In this document: piece by piece, positions 27,648 to 44,942 of the stretch | Layout: each line of letters opens with the position of its first letter | Numbering within the stretch: position 1 is the stretch's first letter | Source of the DNA: Planctomycetota bacterium | GTDB taxonomy: Bacteria > Planctomycetota > UBA1135 > UBA2386 | Assembly (NCBI GenBank): GCA_020849665.1 | Contig: JADLFX010000020.1 | Coordinates: 1 to 53,579, forward strand | Length of the DNA: 53,579 nucleotides | Direction: 5' to 3' | Position numbers and translations under genes: made by a program | Notes under the pieces: model-generated | Told to the model about the DNA's origin: nothing | Seen by the model: only the letters and a program-made list of their open reading frames with translations | The model's database searches: none

Positions 27648-27656
27648 ATCGGCCTC

Positions 27657-28586: not shown

Positions 28587-29534
28587 CTACGAGGCCGCCC
28601 GCGCGGCGATCCCCCGGCCCGGCGCGAGGTACTCGCCCATCGGCAGCACGGTGAAGCGCGCCCGCAGCGCCGTCAGGGTGTCCTCCAGGATCGCCTCCTT
28701 GCGCGCCCAGGCGACATCCATCCCGGGGAAGAAGTCGAGGTCGCGGTGTTCGCCGTTGCCGACGAAGTCGAGCGAGTGCAGCAGGTAGCTCGGCGCCACG
28801 CCGCGCAGCCGGCAGAGGCCGAGGCCGAGGCGCAGGTAGAACGACGCCAGGCCGCGCGAGAAGCGCGACAGCCACACCACGTAGCTCGTGTGGAACGGCG
28901 TGCGCAGGAGCGGGATCGTGGTCACCGGCAGCGACCACAGCTCGGGGGCTCCGGGATAGCGGCTCGGCCGCAGGCTCTGGAACGCGTCCTTGATCCCGCC
29001 GTACATCGCCTTGCGTTGCTCCCGCTCCGCCTTGCTCATCTTCGAGTGGAAGAAGTAGTAGGCGCGGCACAGCGGGCCCAGGAAGGTCGGCAGCGGCGAG
29101 CCGTCGTAGTGGAATCCGCCCTCGCGCAGGATCGCGGGCAGCCGGGGCGACCACGCGAATCCCGGCGCGCGGAATCCCTTGGGTCGCACGCCGAGGCGTG
29201 CCTCGATCAAGTCCGCGGCGCGCAGCACCTCCTCGCGCATGCGCTCGGGCTGCAGCGCGGCGAAGGTCGGTTCGTGGTGCCAGGAGTGGCAGCCGATCTC
29301 GTGGCCGCGCTCCACGAAGGGCCGGATCGCGGCGACCCGGTCGGGATGCTCCAGGTCGGCGGCGATCACGAAGAGCGTGAGGCGCAGCCCGTGCCGGTCG
29401 AGCATCGCCAGCAACCGCGCGCACACCTCCGGGACGACGCTGCGCGTGGCCTCCCAGCCGGGCCGGCCGGCGGCGCGCATGTAGGTCCACGCGTCGTCGA
29501 GGTCGAGCGAGAGCGTGGCCGGCGGCAGGCTCAT
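28587..29534 (-). CDS. Polysaccharide deacetylase (NodB-homology, CE4-like).
   Basis: Start trimmed to MSLPPATLSLDLDDAWTYM. The LTLFVIAADLEHPD...GHEIGCHSWHHE segment contains the Asp and His motifs of NodB-type deacetylases. Overlaps the upstream gene by 4 nt. Confidence 0.75.
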   Translation of the reverse strand: MSLPPATLSLDLDDAWTYMRAAGRPGWEATRSVVPEVCARLLAMLDRHGLRLTLFVIAADLEHPDRVAAIRPFVERGHEIGCHSWHHEPTFAALQPERMREEVLRAADLIEARLGVRPKGFRAPGFAWSPRLPAILREGGFHYDGSPLPTFLGPLCRAYYFFHSKMSKAEREQRKAMYGGIKDAFQSLRPSRYPGAPELWSLPVTTIPLLRTPFHTSYVVWLSRFSRGLASFYLRLGLGLCRLRGVAPSYLLHSLDFVGNGEHRDLDFFPGMDVAWARKEAILEDTLTALRARFTVLPMGEYLAPGRGIAARAAS

Positions 29535-30868
29535 CTGGCCAGCACCTCGCGCCGGGTGTGCGGACCGCCCAACTGCCGGGCCAGGAAGCGTTCCGCCGCA
29601 CGGCGCGCCAGCCCCACGCAGTCGCTGTTGTTCAGGATGCAGGCCGAGAGCTGCGCGTTGTTGACCACGTACACCTTGCCGGGCACGACCTCGCGCGGCG
29701 GCCGGACCGGCGCCGCGCCCACGCGCGGGATCGGCTGGATGAAGCGCGCCCGCTGCACGCTCTGGTGCAGCAGCCAGTCGCCGCCCGCCGCCGGGCGGAT
29801 GCGGCGCAGGTCGCGCAGCGCCGCCTCGGCGATCGCCGCGTCGTCCTGGCGGTGGATCGGATCCCCCGTGGGCGCGTAGCGGGGCAGGTAGACCAGCGCG
29901 TGGCCGTTGGTCTCCGCGCTGGCGTCGACCACGTTCGTGGTCTCGATCACGCCGGTGAGGCAGGAGCGGTCGTCCACCACGTTGAGGATGTAGTTGGCCG
30001 AGAGCGGCCGGCGCCCCACGGCCACGGTGCAGGCCACGCCCAGGTAGGCGGTGTCCTGCAGGCGCAGGCGCTCGGCGTCGGGCAGCATCGGCAGCAGCTC
30101 GGCGACCATCGGGTTGTGCATCGTGAGGAACACCGTGTCGGCCGGGAACGTGCCCGCGGGCGTGTCCACCTCCACGCCGTCGCGCACCAGGCGCACCGAC
30201 TCGACCTTGGAGCCCTCCACCACGCGCACGCCGAGCGCGGCGAGGCGCTCCAGCATCCGCCCGAGGATCGTGCGATAGCCGCCGCGCACGTAGCCGAAGG
30301 TGTCGCCGGAACCTCCCGCCTTGCGGGCCGAGGCAAGGCGCCGGATGGTCGCGAAGATGAAGCGCGCCGACACCCATTCCGCGGCGCTGCCGAGCTTGGC
30401 ACGCAGCAGGTGGCGCCAGAAGTCCCGGTAGCCGGGTTCGCCGCACCACGCACGCAGCCATTCGGCGGAGGTCTGGCTGTCGAGCCTGTCGTCCTCGAAG
30501 GCCCGCGGGGCACGCAGCGCCATCCAGCCGATCCGGAGCTTGGCGGAGAGCGGCAGCGTGGGCAGCCGCAACAGGTCGAGCGCGGTGTTCAGCGGACAGA
30601 GTCGGTCGCCGATCCAGCAGCCCTGCTGCGTGCGCCGCCACACCAGCTCGCCACCCAGCCCCAGCTCCTCGAGGAGTTGCAGCAGCTCGCGGTCGGAGGG
30701 CAGGATGACGTGGTAGAAGCGGTCCCAGACGAAGTCGTGGAAGCGTTGGGACAAGGACAGGCCGCCCGCGCTCTGCGCGTCGAGCACCGTCACCTGCAGC
30801 CCGCCCTGCGCCAGCTGGTGGGCGAGGGCGAGTCCGGTCATCCCGGCTCCCGCGACGACGGCCCTCAT
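29531..30868 (-). CDS. FAD-dependent oxidoreductase (amine-oxidase / protoporphyrinogen-oxidase-like fold).
   Basis: Start trimmed to MRAVVAGAGMTGLALAHQLAQGGLQVTVLDAQ (Rossmann GxGxxG dinucleotide-binding motif). 445 aa. Confidence 0.7.
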   Translation of the reverse strand: MRAVVAGAGMTGLALAHQLAQGGLQVTVLDAQSAGGLSLSQRFHDFVWDRFYHVILPSDRELLQLLEELGLGGELVWRRTQQGCWIGDRLCPLNTALDLLRLPTLPLSAKLRIGWMALRAPRAFEDDRLDSQTSAEWLRAWCGEPGYRDFWRHLLRAKLGSAAEWVSARFIFATIRRLASARKAGGSGDTFGYVRGGYRTILGRMLERLAALGVRVVEGSKVESVRLVRDGVEVDTPAGTFPADTVFLTMHNPMVAELLPMLPDAERLRLQDTAYLGVACTVAVGRRPLSANYILNVVDDRSCLTGVIETTNVVDASAETNGHALVYLPRYAPTGDPIHRQDDAAIAEAALRDLRRIRPAAGGDWLLHQSVQRARFIQPIPRVGAAPVRPPREVVPGKVYVVNNAQLSACILNNSDCVGLARRAAERFLARQLGGPHTRREVLAR

Positions 30869-31491
30869 GGCGTTCGGTGCGGGAGCTCCACCACGCGGTG
30901 GCACTTCTCGCACGGGAACCGACCGCGCACCGGCAGCTCCGCATCGGCCCCCAGCTTGAGGACCGGGTGGCCGCAGCGGCAGACGAGGCCCCGCACGCGT
31001 GCCGGGTTGCCGATCGCCAGGCCGTGCGGCGGCACGTCCCTCGTGACCACGCTGCCCATGCCGATCATCGAGAACTCGCCCAGCGTCACGCCCGGTCCGA
31101 TCACCGCGCCGGCGCCGATCGTCGTGCCGCGCCGGACCGTGGTCGTGAGCGTCTCCTCGGTCGGATCCGAGGTCTGCAGATCCTGCAGGTCCGGGTCGGT
31201 CGAGCGCGGGAAGCGGTCGTTGGTGAACACGGTGTGCGCCGAGATCATCACGCCGTCCTCGATCGTGACGCCGGCGCAGATGTAGACGACGGCGTTGATC
31301 TTCACCAGATCGCCGATCACCACTTCGTAGGCGACGTAGGTCTTCTCGCCGATGATGCACTTGGCGCCGATGCGGGCGTTCTTGCGGATGTGGACGTTGT
31401 CCCACACGCTCGTGCCCGGCCCCAGCACCACGCCGTCCTCGACCAGTGCGGTCGGGTGCACGCGCGGCGGCGGCAGCTCCTGCGGCTTCAC
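30865..31491 (-). CDS. Left-handed beta-helix (hexapeptide-repeat) sugar N-acetyltransferase, WbpD/PglD-like.
   Basis: GTG start 2 nt after the upstream stop. Hexapeptide repeats (IGAKCIIGEKTYVAYEVVIGDLVKINAVVYICAGVTIEDGVMIS...). About 208 aa. Confidence 0.75.
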   Translation of the reverse strand: MKPQELPPPRVHPTALVEDGVVLGPGTSVWDNVHIRKNARIGAKCIIGEKTYVAYEVVIGDLVKINAVVYICAGVTIEDGVMISAHTVFTNDRFPRSTDPDLQDLQTSDPTEETLTTTVRRGTTIGAGAVIGPGVTLGEFSMIGMGSVVTRDVPPHGLAIGNPARVRGLVCRCGHPVLKLGADAELPVRGRFPCEKCHRVVELPHRTP

Positions 31492-31493
31492 GG

Positions 31494-32480
31494 TCACACC
31501 TCCTGCCACTGGCGCTCGCGCGCCGAGCGGTAGGCGGCCTCGATCACGCGCACCGAGAGGATCGCGTCCTCGGCGGTGATCACCGGCGCCTCGGCGCCGC
31601 GGATGTTGCGCGCGAAGTTGCGCAGCTGGTTGCGGAACGCCGCCTTCTTGTCGTAGCCGGAGCCGAACACGGTCCACTCGGCGTCGCCGTCGCGCTTGTA
31701 GCGCGACACCTTCCAGCCCACTTCGATCGTGCCCTTCGCACCGTACAGACGCACGAAGCTGGGCACCTCCTTGTGGACGCTCCACGAGAGGTCGATCGCG
31801 CCCACCGCGCCGGCCTCGGTCTCCAGGAGCAGGCGGCAGGTGTCCTCGACCTCGATCGGCTGCACGTTGCGGGCGAACTGCGCCTGCACCCAGGCGATCG
31901 GCCCACACAGGTAGCGGGCCACGTCGACCGAGTGGCTGCCATTGTCGATCAGCACGCCCCCGCCGGACACCTCGCGCCGGCTGTTCCAGCGCTTGGTCAT
32001 GTCCACGCGTGCGCAGAACACGTTCTCGAAGAGGAGCAGGTCGCCGATGGTGCCCTCGTTGAGCAGGGCCCTGGCCTTGGCCATGTCGTCGACGAAGCGG
32101 AACTTCGACCCCATCATCAGCGTGCGCCCCGTGGTCGCCGCGGCCGCGAGCATGCGCTCCGCGGCCCGCGCCGTGGTCGTGAGCGGCTTCTCGCACAGCA
32201 CGTGCTTGCCGGCGCGCAGCAGCTGCACCGCCAGCTCCTCGTGGGTCACGGGCGGGGTCAGCACTAGGGCCGCGTCGATGCCGCCCTCGTCGAGCATCGC
32301 GCCGAGCGTGGGAAACGGCGGCACGCCCGTCTGGCGTGCCACGGCGTCGCGGCGTGCGGCGTCGACGTCGACCACGCCGGCGAGCTGCAGCTCCGCCACC
32401 TCGCCGATGGCGCCCAGGTAGGACGCGGCGATGCCGCCGCAGCCCACCACGCCCACGCGGATCCTGGCCTGGCCGGTCAC
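31494..32480 (-). CDS. Gfo/Idh/MocA-family NAD(P)-dependent sugar oxidoreductase (WbpB/GnnA-like).
   Basis: GTG start overlapping the upstream TGA. N-terminal Rossmann IRVGVVGCGGIAASYLGAIG...GKHVLCEKPL. The Arg/Gly-rich 5' extension of the ORF (31494-34274) is a different-frame artefact. Confidence 0.8.
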   Translation of the reverse strand: MTGQARIRVGVVGCGGIAASYLGAIGEVAELQLAGVVDVDAARRDAVARQTGVPPFPTLGAMLDEGGIDAALVLTPPVTHEELAVQLLRAGKHVLCEKPLTTTARAAERMLAAAATTGRTLMMGSKFRFVDDMAKARALLNEGTIGDLLLFENVFCARVDMTKRWNSRREVSGGGVLIDNGSHSVDVARYLCGPIAWVQAQFARNVQPIEVEDTCRLLLETEAGAVGAIDLSWSVHKEVPSFVRLYGAKGTIEVGWKVSRYKRDGDAEWTVFGSGYDKKAAFRNQLRNFARNIRGAEAPVITAEDAILSVRVIEAAYRSARERQWQEV

Positions 32481-34834
32481 CGTACCACCGCCTTCGCGGG
32501 CGTCAGGCGCGCCGCTTCCTCCCGGATCACGCGGGTCACGAAGTCCACGTGCTCCTGGGTGTAGAGCTCGTTGATCGGCAGCACGATCACCCGGTCGAGG
32601 GCCTGGGTCGTGCCGGGGTAGTCCTTGCGCTGGAACACCGGCTGCGGCCGGATCCGACCGTCGGCGCCGCGCAGCGGCAGTGCCGAGACCGGCGACGCGT
32701 TCCAGTCGTGGAAGAGCTGGCACTCGAACGCCGGCTTCTGGATGTAGCGGGGCACGCAGAACACGCCGCGTTCCTTCATCTTCTTGCCGAGTTCCACCGC
32801 GCCGCCGGGCACGACCGCGGGGTCGACCATCAGCGCGTACTTCCACCACGAGTGCTTCACCCCGGCCGGCACCTGCGGCAGGGTCAGGCCCGGGACGCCC
32901 TGCAGGCCCGCGGTGATCGCGGCGGCCACGTCGCGGCGGCGCTGCACCACCCACTCGACCTTGTCGAGCTGCGCCAGCGCCACGGCGCCCTGCAGCTCGG
33001 TGAGCCGGTAGTTGAGCGCGGGGAAGTAGTGGTCGGGCTTGGGATCGCCGTAGCCCCAGGCCTTGTTCACGAACAGGAACACGTTGCGGGCCAGGGTGTC
33101 GTCGTTGGTGAGCACGATGCCGCCCTCGCCGGTGGTCATGTGCTTGCCCTGCTGCAGGGAGAACGAGGCGATCTCGCTCAGCGTGCCCACCCTGCCGATC
33201 CGGTCCTCGGCGTAGAACGCCTGGGCCACGTCCTCGATCACCGGGATGCCCTTGCTCCGCGCGAGAGCACGCACCGGCGCCATGTCGACCGGCAGGCCGA
33301 AGAGGTGGGTCACCACGATCGCCTTCGTGCGCTCGCCGATCCTGGCCGCGATCGTCTCGGCGGTGACGTTCAGGGTCCACGGGTCGACGTCTGCGAAGAT
33401 CGGCACGCAGCCCTCGTAGAGGATCGGCGTGAGCGCCCCCATGTCGGTGATCGGCGTGGTGATCACCTCGTCGCCGCCCTTCAGCTTCAGCGCCGCCAGC
33501 GCGCAGTGGAACGCGGCCGACCCCGACGCGCAGGCGATCGCGTGCTTCACGCCGTAGCGTTTGGCGAACTCCTTCTCGAAGCGGGCCACGAACGTGCCCT
33601 TCGTGGAGTTCAGCGTGCCGCTGCGGATCGCGCGGGCCGCCATGAGGATCTCGTGGTCGCCCATCTCGCGGCCGGTCCAGTCGCCGTCGGAGGGCAGAAG
33701 GACCGCGCCGGGCGCCGCGGCCGGCGCCGCGGGACGCTCGGCTTCCTGCCGGCGCCGCGGCCCCTTCGCGAGCACGGCGAGGATCCGGCTCGCGCTCGTT
33801 CCGTCGCCGTACGGGTGCTGCCAGGTGCGGGACCCGGCCAACACCTGGCCGATGCCACGCTCCGCGCCCTCGGGGCGCACGCCGGCCAGCAGGTTCGCGC
33901 CGCAGTCGATGGTCTCTGGGCGCTCGGTGCTGGTACGCAGCGTGACGCAGGGGGTGCCGAGGATGCACGCCTCCTCCTGCACTCCGCCCGAGTCGGTGAC
34001 GACCACGCGGGCCTGCTCCTGCAGCGCCAGGCTCTCGGCCAAGCCGACCGGTGCGACCGCCGAGAACGAGCCCGGCAGGCCGACTCCGTGCGCCTGCATC
34101 TGCCGCGCCGTCCGCGGGTGCACCGGGAAGAGCACGCGCAGGCCCTGGGCCGCCGCGGCGCGGTGCACGCCGTCCAGCAGGCCGCGCAAGAGCGCGGGGT
34201 CGTCGACGTTCTCCTCGCGGTGCAGGGTCAGGTAGACGAACTCCTTCCGGCGCAGCTCGAAGCGGCCCAGGCACTGGGCCGCGGCGGCGGCGGTGGGGCG
34301 CAGCCCCGCCACGACGTCGGCGATGGTGTTGCCGACCACGTGGCAGGCCTCCATCGGCAGGTTCTCGCGGCGCAGGAGGTCGCGCTGCAGCTCGGTCGGG
34401 CAGAACAGCGCCTCGGCGAGGTGGTCGACCTGGATGCGGTTCTTCTCCTCCTGCATGCGGCGGTCGAACGAGCGCAGGCCGGCCTCGACGTGCGCCACCG
34501 GGATGCCGAGCTTGTCGGCGGCGAGGGCGCCGGCCAGCGTGGAGTTGGTGTCGCCCTGCACGACCACCCAGTCGGGCCGCTCCGCCGCCAGGACCTCGCC
34601 CAGCCGCTCGATCATCCGCCCCACCTGCGCTGCGGGGGCGAGCGAGCCGATGCCGAGGTTGTGCTGCGGCTGGGCGAGCGCCAGCTCGGCGAAGAAGCGC
34701 GCGTCCATCTCCGGGCTGTAGTGCTGCCCGGTGTGGATCACGACCAGGGGAGTGCCCGCACCGGTGGCGGCGCGGATGAGGGGTGAGAGCTTGATGATCT
34801 CGGGGCGGGTGCCCAGGACGAAAGCGAGCTTCAT
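32477..34834 (-). CDS. Bifunctional fusion: UDP-N-acetylglucosamine 2-epimerase (WecB/WbpI-like) at the N-terminus, DegT/DnrJ/EryC1-family PLP sugar aminotransferase (WbpE/GnnB-like) at the C-terminus.
   Basis: Start trimmed to MKLAFVLGTRPEIIKLSPLI...HTGQHYSPEMD (WecB). After an approximately 25-aa Pro/Ala linker: MGDHEILMAARAIRSGTLNSTKGTFVARFEKEFAKRYGVKHAIACASGSAAFHCAL (DegT). Single uninterrupted ORF of about 785 aa. Confidence 0.75.
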   Translation of the reverse strand: MKLAFVLGTRPEIIKLSPLIRAATGAGTPLVVIHTGQHYSPEMDARFFAELALAQPQHNLGIGSLAPAAQVGRMIERLGEVLAAERPDWVVVQGDTNSTLAGALAADKLGIPVAHVEAGLRSFDRRMQEEKNRIQVDHLAEALFCPTELQRDLLRRENLPMEACHVVGNTIADVVAGLRPTAAAAAQCLGRFELRRKEFVYLTLHREENVDDPALLRGLLDGVHRAAAAQGLRVLFPVHPRTARQMQAHGVGLPGSFSAVAPVGLAESLALQEQARVVVTDSGGVQEEACILGTPCVTLRTSTERPETIDCGANLLAGVRPEGAERGIGQVLAGSRTWQHPYGDGTSASRILAVLAKGPRRRQEAERPAAPAAAPGAVLLPSDGDWTGREMGDHEILMAARAIRSGTLNSTKGTFVARFEKEFAKRYGVKHAIACASGSAAFHCALAALKLKGGDEVITTPITDMGALTPILYEGCVPIFADVDPWTLNVTAETIAARIGERTKAIVVTHLFGLPVDMAPVRALARSKGIPVIEDVAQAFYAEDRIGRVGTLSEIASFSLQQGKHMTTGEGGIVLTNDDTLARNVFLFVNKAWGYGDPKPDHYFPALNYRLTELQGAVALAQLDKVEWVVQRRRDVAAAITAGLQGVPGLTLPQVPAGVKHSWWKYALMVDPAVVPGGAVELGKKMKERGVFCVPRYIQKPAFECQLFHDWNASPVSALPLRGADGRIRPQPVFQRKDYPGTTQALDRVIVLPINELYTQEHVDFVTRVIREEAARLTPAKAVVR

Positions 34835-35171
34835 GGCTGTGTTGCTGCGTCGTGCTGCCGTGGTGCTGGATCGGTCGTGGACGGTTGCGCGACCGCTCCC
34901 CTTGGAGCGGTGATCTGGCGGGACCGGGAACCGGGTGGTGCGGTGGCTGCGGCGCGGCTCGTTCCGGCCTCCCTCCCCCCGCAGAACCCTAGCCGTTGCC
35001 TCGGCAGGAATCGTCTGCAACTTGGTAGCAGAGGCGTCGCGTGGCGCCGCGGTGCGCCGAAACGAGGCAGGCACAGGGATCTCGTGCCGGGATCGGCGGC
35101 GGCGCGCCTCTGGCGTCGCCGCGCTGGCATCGCCGCTGCCGCGGCGGCGGCCGCCGCTGGCGACCGGCGGC

Positions 35172-37151
35172 TCATGGCGCCTGTGCGCCGCCGAGGCGGC
35201 GGATCTCTTCCAGACATTCCGGGTTCCGGAGCGCCACCAGATTGCGCACCGGGCGGTGGTGCAGCGCGTCGCTCGCGGCGTTCTCGCTGCGCTTGCCGTT
35301 GTGGGTCTGCGGCAGGGCCTGCACCTGGGCGATCACCGCGGGTACGTGCACCGGCGAGGCCCTGGTCTGCAGCTCCTTCTTGATCCGCAGCATGAGCGGC
35401 CGATCCAGCACCCTGCCCGGCGCGAGCACCACCAGCAGGACGAGGCGGGTGCCGCCCGGCTCGTCCGGCGCGTGCTGCGCCAGTGCCATGGCGTCCACGA
35501 TGCCCTCCATCGCCAGCACCACGGAGTAGAGCTCCGCGGGTCCGATGCGCACGCCGCGGATCTTCAGCGTGCCGTCGGAACGCCCGAGGATGCGTGCCGA
35601 GCCGCGCTCGTGCAGGGTCAGGAAGTCGCCATGGGTCCAGGCGCCCTCGTGCTGGCTGTAGTAGGTCTGCCGGTAGCGGGTGCCGTCGGGGTCGGCCAGG
35701 AACCCGACCGGGCGCGACGGGAACGGGTTCATGCACACCAGCTCGCCGGTGCCCGTGCGTCGGGCAACGCCGTCGGCCGCGGCCCGCACGTCCATGGCCA
35801 GGCTCACGCACTGGCTCTCCCCGGCCCACACGGGCAGTCCCGGGTGGCCCAGCACGAAGCAGCCGAGGATGTCGGTTCCACCGGAGATCGATTGCACCGG
35901 GACCCTGGCCACGTGCTCGTGGAGCCAGTGGAAGAGCCAGTCGTAGAGCACCGACCCGGTGCTCTGGATCGCGCGCAGCCGCGGCAGCGGCACGTCGCGG
36001 GCCGGATCGAGGCCGGCCTCCTTGAGGTACTGGACGTAGGCCGGACTGGTGCCGAACACCGTCACCGCCTCGCGCTGCAGCATGCGCAGCAGAGCGTCGG
36101 GCTGCGGCCAGGTCGGCGAGCCGTCGTAGAGCACGATCCGCGTGCCGCAGGCCAGGGCCGACACCAGCCAGTTCCACATCATCCAGCCGGCGGTGGTGTG
36201 GAAGTAGAGCGTGTCCGACGGGCCGAACCCGCTGTGCAGCCGGTGCTCCTTCTGGTGCTCCAGCAGGGTGCCGCCATGCCCGTGCACGATGCACTTCGGC
36301 CGCCCGGTGGTGCCCGACGAGAAGAGCACGAAGAGCGGGTGGTCGAAGGGGAAGCGCGGCCACCACGTGCTCGCCGCCAGCTCGCTGGCGGCGCCGCGCC
36401 GGCGCAGGGCGTCGAGCGTGTGCAAGGCCACGCCCGGCGGCGGGTCGCCGGTGAAACCGTCGCCGTCCAGGACCACCACCGCGCGCACGCTGGGCAGCGC
36501 GGCCAGCACGGCGCGCACCCGGTCCTCGAGTCCCTTGCGCGCGCCCTGGTACGCGTGATCGAAGTGCGCGAAGAGCACCACCGGCTCGATCTGCTGGAAG
36601 CGCGCCAGCACCGCCTCGACGCCCAGGTCCGGCGCCACTGCGGACCACGCCGCGCCCAGCGCCGTGGCCGCGAGGCAGGCCAGCACGGTCTCGCCCGCGT
36701 GCCGTGCGTAGGCCACCACGCGATCCCCGGAGCGCACGCCGATGGCCTGCAGTCCCCCGGCCAGCGCACGCGCCTGCTCGCGCAGGGCCCCACGCGTCCA
36801 GGCGCGGCGGCCACCGTTCTCGTCCACGGCCACCATCGCCTCGGCCGCGGCGTCGCCGGGCGTCACCGTGCGCAGCAGGTTCTCGGTCCAGTTGAGGCGC
36901 AGGCGGGGGAAGAAGCGCGCCTCGGCCACGCCGTCGCCCAGGCAGACCGGCTCGTGATCGCCCTCGCACAGGGTTCCGGACCAGTCCAGGAAGAGCCGCC
37001 AGAACGTCCGGTACTCCGCGCAGGCGAAGTCCTGGAACTCGCCCCAGGTCGCGAGGCGGCGACCGGTCCGGCGCGCACATTCGGCCTGGAAGACCGCCAT
37101 CTCGCTGCGCGCGGCCGCGGCCGGATCGGGAGTCCAGAGCGGCTCGCTCAT
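35172..37151 (-). CDS. Acetoacetyl-CoA-synthetase-family AMP-forming ligase.
   Basis: N-terminus MSEPLWTPDP... and HGHGGTLLEHQKEHRLHSGF match the AACS subfamily. AMP-binding core SSGTTGRPKCIVHGHGG. 659 aa. The start overlaps the carrier-protein stop. Confidence 0.8.
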   Translation of the reverse strand: MSEPLWTPDPAAAARSEMAVFQAECARRTGRRLATWGEFQDFACAEYRTFWRLFLDWSGTLCEGDHEPVCLGDGVAEARFFPRLRLNWTENLLRTVTPGDAAAEAMVAVDENGGRRAWTRGALREQARALAGGLQAIGVRSGDRVVAYARHAGETVLACLAATALGAAWSAVAPDLGVEAVLARFQQIEPVVLFAHFDHAYQGARKGLEDRVRAVLAALPSVRAVVVLDGDGFTGDPPPGVALHTLDALRRRGAASELAASTWWPRFPFDHPLFVLFSSGTTGRPKCIVHGHGGTLLEHQKEHRLHSGFGPSDTLYFHTTAGWMMWNWLVSALACGTRIVLYDGSPTWPQPDALLRMLQREAVTVFGTSPAYVQYLKEAGLDPARDVPLPRLRAIQSTGSVLYDWLFHWLHEHVARVPVQSISGGTDILGCFVLGHPGLPVWAGESQCVSLAMDVRAAADGVARRTGTGELVCMNPFPSRPVGFLADPDGTRYRQTYYSQHEGAWTHGDFLTLHERGSARILGRSDGTLKIRGVRIGPAELYSVVLAMEGIVDAMALAQHAPDEPGGTRLVLLVVLAPGRVLDRPLMLRIKKELQTRASPVHVPAVIAQVQALPQTHNGKRSENAASDALHHRPVRNLVALRNPECLEEIRRLGGAQAP

Positions 37152-37438
37152 GGCCTCTTCCTGGCCGCGTAGCCAGGGTGCGCGCTGACGTAGCCGACGA
37201 TCTTCGCGAGCCCGTCGAAGTTGGCAGGCGTGAGGTCCTTGCGGTCGATCACGATGCCCAGGGTCTTCTCGAGGTGCAGGATCAGCTTCACGAACCCGAG
37301 GCTGTCCAGGATGCCGCTCTGCAGGAACGACCGGTCGTCGCTGCCGATCAGCTGCTCCGCCTCGCCGAAGTGGTAGTTGTCGTCGAGCCAGTCGATGACC
37401 AGCTTGCGCAGGGTGGGGTCGAGGGAGGCAGGCTGCAT
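37148..37438 (-). CDS. Small acyl/peptidyl carrier protein (DltC/ACP-like, phosphopantetheine attachment).
   Basis: 96 aa. LQSGILDSLGFVKLILHLE contains the DSL Ser motif for 4'-phosphopantetheine attachment. The Arg-rich 5' extension of the ORF (37148-38812) was rejected. Confidence 0.7.
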   Translation of the reverse strand: MQPASLDPTLRKLVIDWLDDNYHFGEAEQLIGSDDRSFLQSGILDSLGFVKLILHLEKTLGIVIDRKDLTPANFDGLAKIVGYVSAHPGYAARKRP

Positions 37439-37446
37439 GTCGGGAT

Positions 37447-38958
37447 TCAGAACTGGCGGTAGAGGAAGGTGCTCGCCCCCACTGGAACGACCACGGTCAG
37501 GGCGACGAGGGCCAGCCCCACCAGCACGCCCCGCACCGGCGCCGGCAGCTGGGTGATGCGCGTCCACAGCCCGCGGCAGGCGTCGAGTGCCACGAGGTGA
37601 TGGACGATCGGCAGGGCGAGGGCGAGCCCGAGGAACGTGGCCTGGGTCAGACCGTGCACCGGCACGCGCTGAGCGCCGGTACCGACGAAGCCGCCCAGGA
37701 ACGCGGCCGCGTCGCCGAGCGATGCCGCACGGAACGGGATCAGGGTCGACACGAAGAAGAGCTGGGTCAGGGCCCAGGCGGCGACCTGGTAGCCGCGACT
37801 CTTGCGGCGCTGGACCCAGACGCGGTCGCGACGGCAGAGGCCGCGGTACTGCTCGTCGAACGTGGCCTGCACGGTCATGCCCACGCCGTGCAGGAATCCC
37901 CAGAGCACGTAGCCGGTCATGGCCCCGGAGGCCGAGGCGTGCCACACCCCGGAGAGCACGAACACCAGGAGGAAGCCGGTGCGGATCCGGCCGCGCATCA
38001 GGCCGTGCCCGGCCGTGAGCGGCGTGAAGATGAAGTCGAAGAGCCAGCGGTTGAGCGTGATGTGCCAGCGGCGCCAGAACTCGGGCAGATTGCGGCTCAG
38101 GAACGGCACCGAGAAGTTCTCCGGCAGCTGGATGCCGAAGAGCCGGCCGGCGCCGATCGCCATCAGCGAGTAGCCGGCGAAGTCGGCGTAGATCTGCAGG
38201 GCGTTGGCGAACATGGCCAGGACGTGATCCGCCGGCGCGAACGTCCCTGGCGCGGCGAACACCGGATCCACCACCATGCGCCCGATGGTGTCGGCGGCGA
38301 ACGCCTTGAGCGCGAACCCGAGGAGCAGCTCGCCGGCACCGGTGCGGATGGCGGCGAAGTCGAGGCGCCGTGCCTGCGCGAGCTGCGGGAGCAGCTGGGC
38401 CGCACGCGAGATCGGCCCGGCGGTGAGCTGGGGGAAGAACGCCACGAAGAGCGCGAAGCGCAGCGGGTCGCGGCAGGCCGGCTCCCGGCCGTAGTACACG
38501 TCCACCGTGTAGCCGAGGCGCTGCAGCATCTGGAACGAGATGCCGAGCGGCAGGATCACGTGCAGCGGGCCGGTGGACGGCACGAAACCGAGCGTGCGCA
38601 GCAGGTCGGCGAACGGCTCCACGAAGAAACCCGCGTACTTGCAGAACGCGAGTCCGCCGATTCCCGCGCCCAGGGAGACCAGGAGCCAGGCGAGCCGGAC
38701 GCGCCGCGCGGCCCGCGCCTGCGGCGTCGTGTCCTCGGCCGCGGGGCGCGGCGTCGCCGCGAGGCGCAGGCCGACCCACCAGTCGAGCAGGGCGGTGACG
38801 AAGAGCAGCCACAGGAGGCGCGGATGCCAGCTGGCGTAGAACAGCGCGCTCGCCAGCAGCAGGAACCCGTTCTGCAGCCAGGCACGGCGCGGCAGGAGCC
38901 AGTGCAGGATCAGCACCAGCGGCAGGAAGAAGGCGAACTCGACCTCGACCAGGCTCAC
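37447..38958 (-). CDS. MBOAT-family membrane-bound O-acyltransferase (DltB/AlgI/PatA-like).
   Basis: 503 aa, polytopic. WHITLNRWLFDFIFTPL...GVWHASASGAMTGYVLWGFLHG carries the conserved MBOAT His region. Confidence 0.85.
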   Translation of the reverse strand: MSLVEVEFAFFLPLVLILHWLLPRRAWLQNGFLLLASALFYASWHPRLLWLLFVTALLDWWVGLRLAATPRPAAEDTTPQARAARRVRLAWLLVSLGAGIGGLAFCKYAGFFVEPFADLLRTLGFVPSTGPLHVILPLGISFQMLQRLGYTVDVYYGREPACRDPLRFALFVAFFPQLTAGPISRAAQLLPQLAQARRLDFAAIRTGAGELLLGFALKAFAADTIGRMVVDPVFAAPGTFAPADHVLAMFANALQIYADFAGYSLMAIGAGRLFGIQLPENFSVPFLSRNLPEFWRRWHITLNRWLFDFIFTPLTAGHGLMRGRIRTGFLLVFVLSGVWHASASGAMTGYVLWGFLHGVGMTVQATFDEQYRGLCRRDRVWVQRRKSRGYQVAAWALTQLFFVSTLIPFRAASLGDAAAFLGGFVGTGAQRVPVHGLTQATFLGLALALPIVHHLVALDACRGLWTRITQLPAPVRGVLVGLALVALTVVVPVGASTFLYRQF

Positions 38959-39013
38959 GGGGCCGCCTCCTCGGACGCGCCGGGAGAGCGTGCGGAGGAG
39001 ATCCTGGCGGGTC

Positions 39014-40057
39014 TCATCGCACCCGCTCCGAGGACGCGCCGTTGCGCAGGAACGCCAGCGGGCCCGCCAGTCCCAGGCGCGCGAACTTCGCGTCGCCTTC
39101 GGCCGTGAGATGGTCGCAGTCGGCGCCGAAGTCGGTGTCCAGGATCGGCGCCCACTGCGAGAGATCGACGAGCCGCGCGCCGTGTTCGGCGGCCACTCCG
39201 GCGGCGAGCGCGTGGAACCGCTCGAGCGTCGCCACGCCTGCCTGCGTGCGTTTGGCCGGCATCGTGGGGTAGAGCACGATGGTGACCTCCACGCCGCGGG
39301 CGCGCATGGTCGAGAGGATCGAGCGCCAGGCCCGCATCTGCTCCGCGTGCCCGAGGCCCCGGATCGACTCCTCCAGGAGCTGCGTCGACGCCTCGAGGCG
39401 AGCCGCCACCGCCTCGGGCCGGAGTTCCGGCCGGATCCGGCCGACCAGCGCGGCGCGCACCGAGTCGATCAAGGTGTGGAAGCCGCGATCCTGCACCAGC
39501 GCGAAGTCGTGGAAGAGGCGGCGCCAGCGCTTCTGCAGGTAGTTGCGGTTGAACTGGTTGATGCCGACCCGCGCGACGTCGGCCAGGAAATGATCGAGGG
39601 TCCAGCCCAGGGCCGGCAGGTTCGCGCCGGGGTCGCCCTCGCCGTAGGGCAGCGAGTCCCACCACTCGGTGACCAGCACGAAGTGCTGCAGGCGGGTGCG
39701 CTGGCGCCGCCCCGACGCGTCGGTCGCGTCCAGGACGGGCAGGATCCGGTTCTGGAGGATCCACTCGTAGACCGAGAGCTTGCCGTGCTCGACCGCCACC
39801 GCGGCCAGGTGCCGCTCGCCGCCGGTGAGGCGCGCGAGCTCGTCCTTCACGGCCCAGAACGCGCGGCCATAGCTGGAGCCGAGCACCAGCACGTGTGGAT
39901 CGCTGGCCTGCAGGTCGGCCATGCCCTCCTGCACCTCGGGAAGGTGCTGGGGCGGAGCGACCGGGCGTACGGCGAGGTCGACGCCCCAGAACACCAGGGC
40001 GGCGACCAGGACGACGACGGCGAGATCGCGTCCCGGCCTGGGCTCGGATGGCGACAT
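39014..40057 (-). CDS. N-terminally membrane-anchored SGNH/DltD/AlgJ-like acyltransferase partner protein.
   Basis: Start trimmed to MSPSEPRPGRDLAVVVLVAALVFWGV (TM anchor). C-terminal DCDHLTAEGDAKFA resembles SGNH block V (DxxH). Sits immediately upstream of the MBOAT. Confidence 0.55.
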   Translation of the reverse strand: MSPSEPRPGRDLAVVVLVAALVFWGVDLAVRPVAPPQHLPEVQEGMADLQASDPHVLVLGSSYGRAFWAVKDELARLTGGERHLAAVAVEHGKLSVYEWILQNRILPVLDATDASGRRQRTRLQHFVLVTEWWDSLPYGEGDPGANLPALGWTLDHFLADVARVGINQFNRNYLQKRWRRLFHDFALVQDRGFHTLIDSVRAALVGRIRPELRPEAVAARLEASTQLLEESIRGLGHAEQMRAWRSILSTMRARGVEVTIVLYPTMPAKRTQAGVATLERFHALAAGVAAEHGARLVDLSQWAPILDTDFGADCDHLTAEGDAKFARLGLAGPLAFLRNGASSERVR

Positions 40058-40428
40058 GGACCTGTGCGGGTACTCGGGATCGGCAGGAGGGGTGGCGAAA
40101 GATACCCCATCGGGGTCCGCGGGCACGTCGCTGCGGGCGCAACGGCGCACCCCGCCCCGCCATCGTGCACTCCACCGCTCCACGGGAGCGCCCGAACCGG
40201 TGCTCCGGTGGAGCAGGGTGCGGCGTGCGGTGCGCGGCCGCGCACGGTGCCGCGGGCGACATCCACCGCTGGCGCGCAAGGGCCGCGCGCTCCACCCGGA
40301 GCCGCCCCGGCTCCGATCCTGCCGCTTGCGCGACCTCCGCGCGACCCGGCGACGCGGAACCGCCCGCGCCTCGCAACGCAGGGGGTGCGCCGGGATCATG
40401 GGCGCGCTCATCCCGCCATCCGCCGCCC

Positions 40429-41328
40429 ATGATCCATCGCAAGCTGCTCAAGGTCCTGCGCGTCCCTCCCGGCTCCAAGGTCGATCTCGACGACTTCGAC
40501 CCCGGCCTCGACATCCACCCCGAACTCAGGGCGATCGACAAGGACGACCTCAAGGCGCTGGCCTCCGAGAAGCTGCGCGAGAACGTCGCGGAACTGGCCG
40601 AGGCCCAGGAGCTGCTCTACGCGAGCGACACGTACTCGCTGCTCATCGTCCTCCAGGCCATGGATGCCGCGGGCAAGGACGGGACGATCAAGCACGTCAT
40701 GTCGGGCGTGAACCCGCAGGCCTGCCAGGTGTTCGCGTTCAAGAAGCCATCGGACGAGGAGCTCGATCACAACTTCCTGTGGCGCTACATGCGGGCGCTG
40801 CCCGAGCGGGGACGGATCGGCATCTTCAACCGCTCCTACTACGAGGACGTGCTGGTGGTGAAGGTCCATCCCGAGCTCCTCGACCGCCAGAAGCTCCCGC
40901 CCGGCAAGCGCGACAAGGCGTTCTGGGAGAAGCGCTACGACGACATCAACCGGTTCGAGCGCCACCTGGTGCGCAACGGCACGGTGATCCTCAAGTTCTT
41001 CCTGAACGTGTCGAAGGGCGAGCAGAAGCGCCGCTTCCTCGAACGCCTGGAGAACCCGGAGAAGCACTGGAAGTTCTCGGCCGCCGACCTCGCGGAGCGC
41101 GACCATTGGGACCAGTACCGGCGTGCCTTCGAGGACTGCTTCACCGCCACCAGCACCAAGTGGGCGCCCTGGCACATCATCCCGGCGGACTACAAGTGGG
41201 CGGCCCGCGCGCTGGTCTCGGGCGTGATCTCGCGCGCGATCCAGGACCTCGACCTGCGCTTCCCCGAGCTCACCCCGGAACGCAAGAAGGCGTTGGCGCA
41301 GGCCAGGCGCAAGCTGGCGGCGGAGTAA
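40429..41328 (+). CDS. ppk2: Polyphosphate kinase 2 (PPK2 family, polyphosphate:nucleotide phosphotransferase).
   Basis: Start trimmed to MIHRKLLKVLRVPPGSKVDLDDFDP. QAMDAAGKDGTI (Walker A-like) and FNRSYYEDVLVVKVH (PPK2 lid motif). 299 aa. Confidence 0.85.
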   Translation: MIHRKLLKVLRVPPGSKVDLDDFDPGLDIHPELRAIDKDDLKALASEKLRENVAELAEAQELLYASDTYSLLIVLQAMDAAGKDGTIKHVMSGVNPQACQVFAFKKPSDEELDHNFLWRYMRALPERGRIGIFNRSYYEDVLVVKVHPELLDRQKLPPGKRDKAFWEKRYDDINRFERHLVRNGTVILKFFLNVSKGEQKRRFLERLENPEKHWKFSAADLAERDHWDQYRRAFEDCFTATSTKWAPWHIIPADYKWAARALVSGVISRAIQDLDLRFPELTPERKKALAQARRKLAAE

Positions 41329-41418: not shown

Positions 41419-43608
41419 TCAGTGGATGAAGAGCATCTCGCGGTACTTCGGCAGCGGCCACAGGTCGTCGTCGACCAGCAGCTCCAGCGCGTCGCACGCC
41501 TGCCGCACCTGGCTCATCGCCGGGATCACCTGATCCCGGTAGAACGTGGCGTGGTCCTTGTGCGAGCCATGGTGCGTCTCGGCCTTGTCCGAGGCGGCCT
41601 GCAACGCCTCGATGGCGGTCAGGAGCTGGTTCACCCGGCCCGAGAGCGTGGCCAGCAGCTTCTCCTGCGCGCGCAGGTCGCTCACGCCGGCCTGCCGGGC
41701 GGCCGAGACACTGCTCGCGAGCCGCTCCTGGTGGTTCAGGGCCACCGGCAGCACATGCGTGGCCGCCAGCCCGATCAGGCTCTGTGCTTCGATCGCGATG
41801 GCCTTCACGTAGCCCTCGAACGCGATGTGCCCGCGCGACTCGACCTCCTTGCGGGTCAGCACGCCGAAGCGCTCGAAGAGCACCACGTGCTTCTCGGTGG
41901 CGTAGTGCGCCAGCGCGTCGACGGTGTTGCGCAGGTTGGGCAGGCCACGCCGCTCGGCCTCGGCGTGCCATTCCGCTGAGTAGCCGTTGCCGTTGAAGAT
42001 CACCCGCGCGTGCTTCTTGAGCGCGGTCTGCACCACGGTCTGCACCGCGGCGTCCAGACTCATCGTGCGCGCATGCTTCTCGATCTCGTCCGCCAGCCAC
42101 GCGACCGAATCGGCCACGATGGTGTTGAGCGCGATGTTGGGGTTGGCGATCGACTGGCTCGCCCCGACGGCGCGGAACTCGAACTTGTTGCCGGTGAACG
42201 CGAACGGCGACGTGCGATTCCGGTCCGTGGCGTCGCGCGGCAGAGGTGGCAGGGTGTTGACGCCCAGCGTCATCGTGGTCTTGCGCGCTCCCTCGCCGCG
42301 CGGCGTGCCGCTGATCAGGTTCTCCACCACCTCGGTGAGCTGATCGCCGAGGTAGATCGACAGGATCGCCGGCGGAGCCTCGTTGGCGCCCAGGCGGTGG
42401 TCATTGCCCGCGAAGGCGATCGAGGTGCGCAGCAGCTCGGGGAAGGTGTCCACCGCGCGGATCACCGCGGTGAGGAACACCATGAAGCGCAGGTTCTCGC
42501 CCGGCGTGCGCCCCGGCTCCAGCAGGTTCTCGCCGGTGTCGGTGGCCATCGACCAGTTGTTGTGCTTGCCCGAGCCGTTCACGCCCGCGTACGGCTTCTC
42601 GTGCAGCAGGCACACGAAGCCGTGCTTCTGTGCGACCTGGCGCAGCACCTCCATGGTGAGCATGTTGTGGTCCATGGCCACGGTGGTGCGCTCGAACACC
42701 GGCGCGAGTTCGTACTGCGACGGGGCCACCTCGTTGTGCCGGGTCTTGGCCGGCACGCCGAGCTTCCACAGCTCGCGCTCGCAGTCCTGCATGAACGCGA
42801 TCACGCGCGGGCTGATGGCGCCGAAGTAGTGGTCCTCCAGCTCCTGGCCCTTGGGCGGCCGCGCGCCGAGCAGCGTGCGCCCGCACGCGATCAGGTCCGG
42901 ACGCAGCTGATAGAAGCCGCGGTCGACCAGGAAGTACTCCTGTTCGGCCCCGAGCGTGGTGAACACGGAGCGCACCTCCTTCTCGCCCAGGATGTGCAGC
43001 AGGCGCACCGCCTGCTTGGACAGGGCCTCCATGCTGCGCAGCAGGGGCGTGCGCTTGTCCAGCGCCTCGCCGGTCCACGAGCAGAACGCCGTGGGAATGC
43101 ACAGGGTGGCCCCGTTCTGGGTCTCGCGGATGAAGGCGGGCGAGGTCGGGTCCCAGGCCGTGTAGCCGCGCGCCTCGAAGGTGGCGCGCAGCCCACCGGA
43201 GGGGAACGACGACGCGTCCGGCTCGCCCTTGACCAACTGCTTCCCGGAGAACTCCAGGAGCATCCGGCCATCCGCCATGTTGAGGAACGAATCGTGCTTC
43301 TCGGCCGTGAGCCCGGTCATCGGCAGGAACCAGTGCGTGAAGTGGGTCGCGCCGCGGCCCACCGCCCACTCCTTCATCGCGGTCGCCACCTGGTCGGCCA
43401 GGGTCGGATCCAGCTCCGTGCCGTGCTCCATGCACGAGCGCAGCGCCTTGTATGCGGACTCGGGCAGGCGGGCGCGCATCTCGGAGTCGCCGAACACGTT
43501 CATGCCGAAGAGCTCGTGGATGCGCTCCTGCTCGTAGGACGTGGCGGAACGGACCGGCTTCTTGCTCAGGATGGACTGGACCGCAGCACGGCGCGCACTG
43601 GCGGACAT
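41419..43608 (-). CDS. glnN: Glutamine synthetase type III.
   Basis: 729 aa, the length class of GSIII. N-terminal domain, catalytic region (...HEKPYAGVNGSGKHNNWS...) and the C-terminal GSIII extension. Confidence 0.85.
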   Translation of the reverse strand: MSASARRAAVQSILSKKPVRSATSYEQERIHELFGMNVFGDSEMRARLPESAYKALRSCMEHGTELDPTLADQVATAMKEWAVGRGATHFTHWFLPMTGLTAEKHDSFLNMADGRMLLEFSGKQLVKGEPDASSFPSGGLRATFEARGYTAWDPTSPAFIRETQNGATLCIPTAFCSWTGEALDKRTPLLRSMEALSKQAVRLLHILGEKEVRSVFTTLGAEQEYFLVDRGFYQLRPDLIACGRTLLGARPPKGQELEDHYFGAISPRVIAFMQDCERELWKLGVPAKTRHNEVAPSQYELAPVFERTTVAMDHNMLTMEVLRQVAQKHGFVCLLHEKPYAGVNGSGKHNNWSMATDTGENLLEPGRTPGENLRFMVFLTAVIRAVDTFPELLRTSIAFAGNDHRLGANEAPPAILSIYLGDQLTEVVENLISGTPRGEGARKTTMTLGVNTLPPLPRDATDRNRTSPFAFTGNKFEFRAVGASQSIANPNIALNTIVADSVAWLADEIEKHARTMSLDAAVQTVVQTALKKHARVIFNGNGYSAEWHAEAERRGLPNLRNTVDALAHYATEKHVVLFERFGVLTRKEVESRGHIAFEGYVKAIAIEAQSLIGLAATHVLPVALNHQERLASSVSAARQAGVSDLRAQEKLLATLSGRVNQLLTAIEALQAASDKAETHHGSHKDHATFYRDQVIPAMSQVRQACDALELLVDDDLWPLPKYREMLFIH

Positions 43609-43856
43609 CGAGGGGCTCCGAAGGGGAAGAAGGGGGAAGGACGGCTGGACCCCGCCGTCGGGGCGGCTTCGGGGGCGCCGTCATAGGGACGCGGCGCCGC
43701 AGGCACAAGTGCGCCATGCGACCGGTGGCGTGGGCGCGGCCGGAAGTGCGCGGGCTCGGGCGGGTAAGGGCGCCGCCGCCTGCCGGGCAGCCGCCGCAGC
43801 GGCTCCCGGGCGCGGTTCCATCCGGTGGCGGGCGCCGCGCGGCGGCCGCCGGCAAC

Positions 43857-44942
43857 TCAGACCGGCACCCGCTCCGCGCCACCCGCGGCCACGCACACGA
43901 GGGCCGGGCCGCCCAGGCGGGCCAGGAATCCATCGGCCGCCTGGCGCGTCGTGAGCGCGATCGCGCAGCCGCCGAATCCCGCACCCACCAGGCGCGCGCC
44001 CAGCGCGCCGGCGGCCTTGGCGCGCGCCACGAGCGCGTCGAGCTCGGGACAGCTCACGTCGTAGAGGTCGCGCAGTCCGGCGTGGCTCCGATCGAGGAGC
44101 GCGCCGAGCGCCGCGAGATCGCCGCGTCGCAGCGCCGCCTCGGCCTCGTCCACGCGCGCCGCCTCGTCGAACACGAAGCTCGCGCGCCGGCGCAGGAGCG
44201 GATCGGCCAGCACTCCGGCACGCGCCCGCCGATCCGCGCCCGGCACGTCGGCGAGCAGGCCGCCCGCCGGCGCGCCCAGCGCCTGCGCCGCCGCGAGGCA
44301 CTCGCGCACCCGGGCGTTGTAGCCGTCCTGTGCGGCACCGCCCTTGGGCGCCGGCACGCCCGAGTCGAGCACCACCACCACGAGCTCCTCGGGCATCGCG
44401 ATCGGGCGGGCGCGCAGCGGGCGGAACTCGATCCGCACGCAGTGCCCGGGACGGCCCAGGAGCGCGATCGCCTGGTCCATGCCGCCCGACAGGGTTCCGA
44501 CGTAGCGCTCGGCCAGCCGCGCCTCCTCGGCCAGGGCGAGGCGATCCCCCGCTTCGCCGAGCGCCAGGAAGGTGGCCACGACCAGCGCCGACGACGACGA
44601 GAGTCCGGCCGCCACCGGCACGGTGCTCGAGACCAGCAGCTCGACGCCCCGGACCGGGGGCCGGCAGCGCGCGGCCGCGACCACGTAGTCCACCCAGGTG
44701 CGGCGCGGCGGCCGCGTCGCCAGGGCTGCCAGGGGGATCTCCTCGGCGGGGAAGCGCCCGGGGTCGGCGTTGCACACGCGCAGCACGGGCGCGGCGAGCG
44801 GCGTCGCGCGTACCTCGGTGCGGCGGTCGATCGCCATGGGCAGCACCGCGAAGCCGTTGTAGTCGACGTGTTCGCCGATCAGATTGACGCGGCCCGGCGC
44901 GCGGCCGATCACCGCACGGAGCGGATGCGGGTTCAGGACCAA
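43857..44942 (-). CDS. galK: Galactokinase (GHMP kinase family).
   Basis: GRVNLIGEHVDYNGF galactokinase signature and the GHMP ATP motif (PVAAGLSSSSALVVA). Confidence 0.85.
   Translation of the reverse strand: MVLNPHPLRAVIGRAPGRVNLIGEHVDYNGFAVLPMAIDRRTEVRATPLAAPVLRVCNADPGRFPAEEIPLAALATRPPRRTWVDYVVAAARCRPPVRGVELLVSSTVPVAAGLSSSSALVVATFLALGEAGDRLALAEEARLAERYVGTLSGGMDQAIALLGRPGHCVRIEFRPLRARPIAMPEELVVVVLDSGVPAPKGGAAQDGYNARVRECLAAAQALGAPAGGLLADVPGADRRARAGVLADPLLRRRASFVFDEAARVDEAEAALRRGDLAALGALLDRSHAGLRDLYDVSCPELDALVARAKAAGALGARLVGAGFGGCAIALTTRQAADGFLARLGGPALVCVAAGGAERVPV

Follow-up and report, generated by a model that had tools for sequence, protein, structure and literature searches.

AlmEFG of Vibrio cholerae, which attaches glycine to lipid A, uses a small carrier loaded by a ligase for the modification of a Gram-negative envelope. 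In the Dlt system of Gram-positive bacteria (DltA, DltC, DltB, DltD and DltX), a dedicated adenylating ligase and a small carrier with a DSL-type serine act with DltB, an MBOAT (membrane-bound O-acyltransferase), and DltD, a membrane-anchored SGNH protein, and the acyl group is D-alanine. PatA/PatB, AlgI/AlgJ(X,F) and WssH/WssI each combine an MBOAT that has extra C-terminal length and an FxYxxF motif with a separate SGNH transferase; their donor is acetyl-CoA and they have neither carrier nor ligase. Recent mechanistic work divides the MBOAT/SGNH pathways into Dlt, with a carrier and DltX, and the others, which use acyl-CoA, have the motif fused to the MBOAT and contain no carrier protein (PMC12148441). 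Here we analyse a four-gene cassette in a 53,579-nucleotide stretch of DNA from a Planctomycetota bacterium (contig JADLFX010000020.1 of assembly GCA_020849665.1; the whole stretch is called the window below), which encodes an SGNH-fold protein (X), an MBOAT, a carrier protein and a ligase of the acetoacetyl-CoA synthetase (AACS) family. By analogy with the described systems, the cassette reads as a Dlt/Pat hybrid, Dlt-like on its cytoplasmic side and PatAB/AlgIJ-like on its outer side, because it has a carrier and a ligase as in Dlt and an MBOAT with a fused shuttle motif as in PatA and AlgI.

The likeness to Dlt extends to the ligase-carrier pair, the DltB-like core of the MBOAT and the membrane-anchored SGNH protein. 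DltC and DltB are the closest solved relatives of the window carrier and MBOAT, and the fold of X resembles that of DltD. The cassette departs from Dlt in its ligase, which belongs to the AACS/ACS branch and not to the branch of DltA and the adenylation domains of non-ribosomal peptide synthetases (NRPS); in its predicted acyl group, a short keto or hydroxy acid instead of D-alanine; in its gene order, X-MBOAT-carrier-ligase; and in its hosts, Planctomycetota, Myxococcota, Gemmatimonadota and Acidobacteriota, which lack teichoic acids. It contains neither a DltA-type ligase nor a separate DltX, the FxYxxF motif being fused to the MBOAT at its C terminus, and the scores of its MBOAT and carrier against the DltB and DltC models lie under the equivalog cut-offs. 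With PatA/PatB, AlgI/AlgJ(X,F) and WssH/WssI it shares the FxYxxF-ending MBOAT, the SGNH partner and a polysaccharide-biosynthesis genomic context, and it differs from them in its conserved carrier and ligase. It differs from AlmEFG in that AlmE is DltA-like and AlmG is an LpxL-type acyltransferase of the cytoplasmic face, not an MBOAT/SGNH pair. A literature search for an AACS or other ligase in connection with a carrier, an MBOAT or acylated polysaccharides found no description of such a system. Taken as a whole, the four genes are likely to encode a carrier-dependent MBOAT/SGNH pathway that acylates an extracytoplasmic glycan, and comparison of the ligase with its relatives suggests, with rather more confidence, that it loads the carrier protein instead of CoA.

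Layout and conservation of the cassette

The four genes and the short elements on which the argument depends are the following (window positions; aa, amino acids).

35172..37151, minus strand: AACS-family adenylate-forming ligase, 659 aa, ATG at 37151-37149; predicted carrier-protein loader
37148..37438, minus strand: DltC-like carrier, 96 aa, ATG at 37438-37436, TGA at 37150-37148
Codon 37301-37303, minus strand: phosphopantetheine-attachment Ser46 of the carrier, in the motif GILDSLGF
37148..37151, minus strand: ATGA, overlap of carrier stop and ligase start, read from the sequence; translational coupling
37447..38958, minus strand: MBOAT-family membrane acyltransferase with a DltB-like core, 503 aa, stop at 37449-37447
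37450..37467, minus strand: FLYRQF hexapeptide at the MBOAT C terminus, read from the sequence, with Tyr500 at 37459-37461
39014..40057, minus strand: X, SGNH-fold protein, 347 aa, with an N-terminal membrane-anchor helix; predicted extracytoplasmic acyl transferase

The downstream genes discussed below are on the minus strand as well. An initial annotation, made from the sequence alone, had described an AACS-type ligase translationally coupled to a DltC-like carrier gene that follows the MBOAT gene after only 8 nucleotides (nt). Direct reading confirms this arrangement: the carrier stop (TGA, 37150-37148) and the ligase start (ATG, 37151-37149) overlap by 4 nt as ATGA, and the spacer between the MBOAT and carrier genes is 8 nt long (37439-37446). 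The pair described there is half of a four-gene module, to which the SGNH member and the shuttle motif of the MBOAT are added here. A Shine-Dalgarno-like stretch, AGGAAGAGG, lies 3-11 nt 5' of the ligase ATG, with its final G 3 nt before the ATG. The gene calls of the public record (MCC6670294-97, from a Planctomycetota metagenome-assembled genome) agree with ours and bear the names acetoacetate--CoA ligase, acyl carrier protein, MBOAT family protein and SGNH/GDSL hydrolase. In the 337-nt GC-rich gap 3' of the ligase (34835-35171), a scan for sigma-70-like promoters and intrinsic terminators was negative, as was a search of 34700-40700 for Rfam RNA families.

All six sampled ligase homologues lie in the same order, X (~350 aa), MBOAT (~490 aa), carrier (~90 aa) and then ligase, with the carrier stop overlapping the ligase start in each, and the flanking genes are unrelated between loci. 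An independent, carrier-based scan of metagenome contigs yielded 80 loci, in which an AACS-type ligase was directly downstream of the carrier in 50 of the 61 loci with room and an MBOAT directly upstream in 57 of 72. X adjoins the MBOAT in 27 of the 35 loci with room. The coupling of carrier and ligase is not due to chance, because a 4-nt [AGT]TGA overlap recurs in at least 51 of 61 adjacent carrier-ligase pairs on other contigs and the layout is common to all six ligase homologues.

Several variants of the cassette were found. In six loci (L112, L113, L119, L123, L125 and L127) a UDP-GlcNAc 2-epimerase gene is inserted between carrier and ligase; the carrier motif of this sub-family reads GILSSLGF instead of GILDSLGF. 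In a Gemmatimonadales genome X is located 3' of the ligase. Five carrier-ligase pairs (L006, L089, L116, L128 and L147) have neither an MBOAT nor an SGNH gene within the available 3-6 kb, and their carrier may feed a different transferase. The pair in L128 has a 2-epimerase, a deacetylase-GT2 fusion and DegT as neighbours.

Family, phylogeny and residues of the ligase

The ligase exceeded the family cut-offs of both NCBI curated models for acetoacetate-CoA ligase: it scored 668.9 bits with NF002937, whose cut-off is 639, and 631.1 bits with TIGR01217, whose cut-off is 520.9. Among solved structures its best match is 4WD1, the acetoacetate-CoA ligase AacS of S. lividans (E 1e-131), and its nearest homologues are 52-62% identical to it. 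The core motifs are present (P-loop SSGTTGRPK at 278-286, A8 Arg R535 and A10 Lys620), as is the block VHGHGGTLLEHQKEH that the initial annotation had quoted as an AACS hallmark; this block is family-wide, ordinary members having VHgaGGTLLQHlKEh. No DltA model was among the best 25 of 79 NCBIfam matches, and no features typical of amino-acid adenylation domains were found in the ligase. These results bear out its assignment as AACS-type: it shares with AacS and the TIGR01217 family full-length homology, the N-terminal extension, the P-loop, the HG.GGTLL.H.KEH block, the A10 lysine and those residues of the acyl pocket that were mapped.

A scan of species-representative genomes with a ligase alignment gave 80 loci, namely L006, L007, seven fusions and 71 stand-alone loci. 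L007 contains a full cassette and L006 a carrier and a ligase only, and the 71 stand-alone loci encode enzymes of ~650 aa without a cassette. The fusions (L008-L013 and L015) are ~1000-aa proteins in which an AACS-like domain is joined to a PP-binding domain (48 bits) and a Thioesterase domain (83 bits), giving an A-T-TE architecture, for example at L008:2561-5590. They occur in Caballeronia, Paraburkholderia (two copies), Geodermatophilus, Solirubrobacterales and Steroidobacteraceae, in unrelated neighbourhoods. A 743-aa ORF in L116 was considered as a carrier-ligase fusion and rejected, its translation being that of an out-of-frame high-GC ORF.

In a neighbour-joining tree of 203 sequences (200 bootstraps), the cassette and fusion ligases together were separated from all 71 stand-alone AACS in 200 of 200 bootstraps, and the ligase of the window thus falls outside the stand-alone enzymes. 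The fusion clade alone was recovered in 153 of 200. Members of the cassette clade were on average 56% identical to each other, 51% identical to fusion ligases and 41% identical to stand-alone ligases. By these sequence comparisons, the fusion ligases are the sister group of the cassette ligases. None of the sampled loci contains a window-type ligase that stands alone, as ordinary AACS do; the enzyme is paired with a carrier or, in the sister clade, fused to one.

Residues were mapped through alignments to S. enterica Acs and 4WD1. The four acyl-pocket positions of Acs that were defined by experiment, V310/T311/V386/W414, correspond to M324/M325/T398/G424 of the ligase, and this M/M/T/G set is identical in the cassette, fusion and stand-alone groups and in 4WD1. 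Positions on the acceptor side differ between the groups. The position equivalent to Acs R194 (K208 in 4WD1) is lysine or arginine in 71 of 71 ordinary AACS, in 4 of 125 cassette ligases and in none of the seven fusions; in the window ligase it is A204. The equivalent of Acs R584 is lysine or arginine in 68 of 71 ordinary AACS, 20 of 125 cassette ligases and two of the seven fusions; in the window ligase it is Q595, where ordinary AACS have arginine. In Acs, R584 touches the 3'-phosphate of CoA, and when this residue is replaced the enzyme no longer discriminates against dephospho-CoA (PMC10455477, which is also the source for the CoA-contact roles of the other Acs residues). Compared with ordinary AACS, cassette ligases have lost seven conserved basic positions and gained eleven, and nine conserved positions of the N-domain are switched. 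The A8 motif is remodelled from NPGGVRIGTAE in ordinary AACS to (N/K)IRGVRIGPAE, which resembles that of NRPS adenylation domains.

The unchanged pocket, the remodelled acceptor surface, the carrier-fused sister clade and the near-obligatory coupling to a carrier together point to a ligase in which the thiol acceptor has changed and acyl specificity has been kept. Because the four mapped pocket residues are identical to those of ordinary AACS, the ligase probably acts on a short beta-keto or short-chain acid and not on D-alanine or glycine. That the acyl group is specifically acetoacetyl is a narrower suggestion from the same alignment, quite possible and no more than tentative. The initial annotation had offered a short-acid substrate and the recruitment of an AACS scaffold for carrier acylation as alternatives. 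The first now appears probable from the pocket, and the second gains support from the separate clade, the loss of CoA-contact basic residues and the carrier coupling; the two readings are complementary rather than alternative.

Carrier, MBOAT and protein X

The carrier matches Pfam PP-binding with 26.1 bits (cut-off 20.8), and Ser46 of its GILDSLGF motif is invariant. Its composition is of coding type, like that of its neighbours (GC3 0.95, GC2 0.37). In a profile search its best solved matches were the D-alanyl carrier proteins 6BUG_A (E 3.9e-10) and 8JF2_F, with fatty-acid and ordinary acyl carrier proteins well behind, in agreement with the DltC-like label given to it initially. Its scores against the DltC equivalog models, 29 (cut-off 68) and 20.9 (cut-off 52.35), are far below the thresholds. 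Judged by these scores, the carrier is a homologue of DltC and not an orthologue. The carrier family comprises 895 clusters at 90% identity (E <= 1e-10), and its named members come from Planctomycetota, Myxococcota, Gemmatimonadota and Vicinamibacteria.

The product of the MBOAT gene matches Pfam MBOAT with 60 bits and the DltB model TIGR04091 with 153.5 bits, below its cut-off of 375. Its solved relatives are DltB only (6BUG and 8JEM, E 8.6e-27), and its His340, in GVWH, aligns with the histidine of DltB GFWH. The protein is ~80 aa longer than DltB and ends in FLYRQF, a form of the FxYxxF acyl-shuttle motif; F[IL]YxQF followed directly by the stop codon was found in all eight cassette MBOATs examined. 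In PatA the tyrosine of FxYxxF is acetylated, and in the Dlt pathway the motif sits on a separate microprotein, DltX (PMC12148441).

X has a weak match to Pfam Lipase_GDSL_2 (E 1.1e-5, below cut-off), and searches with its profile against PDB sequences and against NCBIfam found nothing significant. Among its homologues GSS (block I) and DxxH (block V) are invariant. In a Foldseek search with its AF2 model (pLDDT 83; N-terminal hydrophobic helix at residues 8-30) the matches were SGNH hydrolases, with DltD (6O93, 3BMA and 7DXM) giving the top query TM-score, 0.44. The resemblance to DltD-type SGNH proteins is thus one of fold only (probability 1.0, query TM-score 0.44, together with the N-terminal helix, GSS and DxxH). 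From this model, X is predicted to be an analogue of DltD, PatB and AlgJ, that is, an extracytoplasmic acyl transferase.

Proposed pathway, acceptor and alternatives

By analogy with Dlt and PatAB, we infer the following sequence of steps. The AACS-derived ligase would adenylate a short-chain acid, most likely acetoacetate or a closely related C3-C5 acid of the beta-oxo or beta-hydroxy type, and the acyl group would be thioesterified not to CoA but to the phosphopantetheine attached to the carrier's Ser46; ligase and carrier would form the cytoplasmic half of the pathway. The acyl-carrier would then dock at the cytoplasmic face of the MBOAT, and H340 would pass the acyl group to Tyr500 of the MBOAT's own FLYRQF motif at the outer face of the membrane. 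Finally, membrane-anchored X would take the acyl group on its serine and hand it to a surface polysaccharide. The acceptor polymer might contain ManNAc-type amino-uronic sugars made through the adjacent genes, which Pfam matches identify as follows.

32477-34834, minus strand: UDP-GlcNAc 2-epimerase and DegT aminotransferase fused in a single ORF
31494 to about 32490, minus strand: GFO/IDH/MocA oxidoreductase
30865-31470, minus strand: hexapeptide acyltransferase
29531 to about 30775, minus strand: amine-oxidase-like flavoprotein
28587 to about 29540, minus strand: polysaccharide deacetylase

These downstream genes (28587..34834) probably make or edit the acceptor sugar and may form one functional unit with the cassette. 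The set bears a resemblance to the WbpI/E/B/D route to 2,3-diacetamido-mannuronic acid. At other loci, a 2-epimerase was found in 9 of 88 cassette loci versus 0 of 71 control AACS loci. Glycosyltransferases lie beside the cassette in L002, glycosyltransferases, Wzy and a deacetylase in L087, and a flippase in L007; the epimerase, DegT and deacetylase-GT2 fusion near the L128 pair were noted above. An AtoE-like short-chain fatty-acid transporter gene adjoins the cassette in divergent orientation at two unrelated loci (L001:113-1489, minus strand, and L089:1878-3239, minus strand; 358 bits to Pfam SCFA_trans for the latter) and was found in 0 of the 71 control AACS loci, which hints weakly at a short acid taken up from outside as the substrate.

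A large membrane protein is often encoded beside the cassette (L001:6769-8202; L002:8504-9994, minus strand; L089:218-1777, minus strand; L129:6105-7787). Those of L001, L002 and L089 have a weak-to-moderate match to PMT_2, a GT-C-type glycosyltransferase family, and that of L129 was judged by eye. Further out in the window, 25971-28571 (plus strand) and 41419-44942 (minus strand) encode a Ser/Thr protein kinase and then an FGE-sulfatase-domain protein, a type III glutamine synthetase and a galactokinase-like GHMP kinase. An ORF ending at 41328 (plus strand, within 40560-41328) resembles polyphosphate kinase 2 (PPK2), by eye only.

The most direct alternative to carrier loading is that the ligase is a genuine acetoacetyl-CoA synthetase which supplies acetoacetyl-CoA to the MBOAT or to general metabolism, the carrier being loaded in some other way or having another role. 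Characterised MBOATs with a fused FxYxxF use acyl-CoA, and PatA uses acetyl-CoA (PMC12148441), the pocket residues are the same as in ordinary AACS, and a score above the equivalog cut-off for acetoacetate-CoA ligase makes CoA ligation compatible with the sequence. Some details of the comparison also weigh against our reading: the CoA site was mapped by homology to Acs, no AACS-CoA complex existing; the equivalent of Acs R191 is tyrosine even in ordinary AACS; 16% of cassette ligases are still basic at position 595; the cassette clade by itself was recovered in only 84 of 200 bootstraps; and the five carrier-ligase pairs without an MBOAT in reach depart from the four-gene scheme. A genuine synthetase is nonetheless at odds with the loss of the basic residues aligned with CoA-phosphate contacts, with a clade that lies apart from the stand-alone AACS and has carrier-fused enzymes as its sister group, with a 4-nt carrier coupling that is near-universal, and with a cassette that encodes no other loading enzyme. 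We therefore regard it as improbable and prefer a ligase that acylates the carrier.

If the ligase does load the carrier, the acid could be another one. It might be acetate, in which case an acetyl-carrier would serve ordinary O-acetylation, or 3-hydroxybutyrate or some further small acid, or else, by the example of Dlt and Alm, an amino acid. Both 3-hydroxybutanoyl and acetyl groups are known glycan substituents, and the AtoE-like transporter that adjoins the cassette in L001 and L089 fits any short acid. Only four pocket positions could be mapped, and beside the pocket position 401 is proline in ordinary AACS and isoleucine or valine in cassette ligases, in addition to the nine switched N-domain positions. 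The apparent invariance of the motifs GWMMWNW and SISGGTD is in part an ascertainment effect, both having served as patterns in the genome scan; T398 and 4WD1 are unaffected by it. Yet M324/M325/T398/G424 are invariant and the same as in ordinary AACS, the glycine at the position of Acs W414 gives a pocket larger than acetate requires, and typical features of amino-acid adenylation domains were not found in the ligase. A different acid is accordingly rather unlikely in our judgement, more readily conceivable than a genuine synthetase. The acceptor, too, could be a lipid, a protein or a small molecule instead of a polysaccharide: many cassette loci have no glycan genes nearby, and some carrier-ligase pairs, for which such an acceptor is possible, have no MBOAT. 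All characterised bacterial MBOAT and SGNH pairs, however, acylate an envelope polymer (PMC12148441), glycan genes flank the cassette in the window, L002, L007, L087 and L128, and a 2-epimerase lies within the cassette itself in six loci. A non-glycan acceptor thus seems to us a slim prospect, and a surface glycan remains the acceptor that we propose.

If the proposed pathway is correct, carrier-protein donors are not confined to the D-alanylation of teichoic acids in Firmicutes. The boldest form of the proposal is doubtful as it stands. It sees in the combination of an AACS-derived ligase, a DltC-like carrier and a PatA-type MBOAT/SGNH pair a third and widespread class of envelope-polymer acylation in bacteria, by which the surface glycans of the four host phyla would receive an acetoacetyl (beta-keto) ester. 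We know of no report of an acetoacetyl ester substituent on surface glycans. Such a substituent, if real, would be chemically reactive and could, for example, condense with free amines made by the co-encoded deacetylase. For the enzymes themselves, the results mark off a separate clade within the AACS family, either free-standing or T-TE-fused, which probably consists of carrier-loading enzymes. Systematic mis-annotation as acetoacetate--CoA ligase is likely for the free-standing members at least; if the boldest form of the proposal holds, roughly a thousand 'acetoacetate--CoA ligase' annotations would belong to carrier-protein ligases. The ligase-carrier pair offers a tractable model for a switch from CoA to a carrier as acceptor, with residues 204, 595 and 601 and the A8 motif as candidate switch positions. 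More broadly, the cassette leads us to predict that the surface glycans of abundant and poorly studied environmental phyla carry a new acyl substituent.

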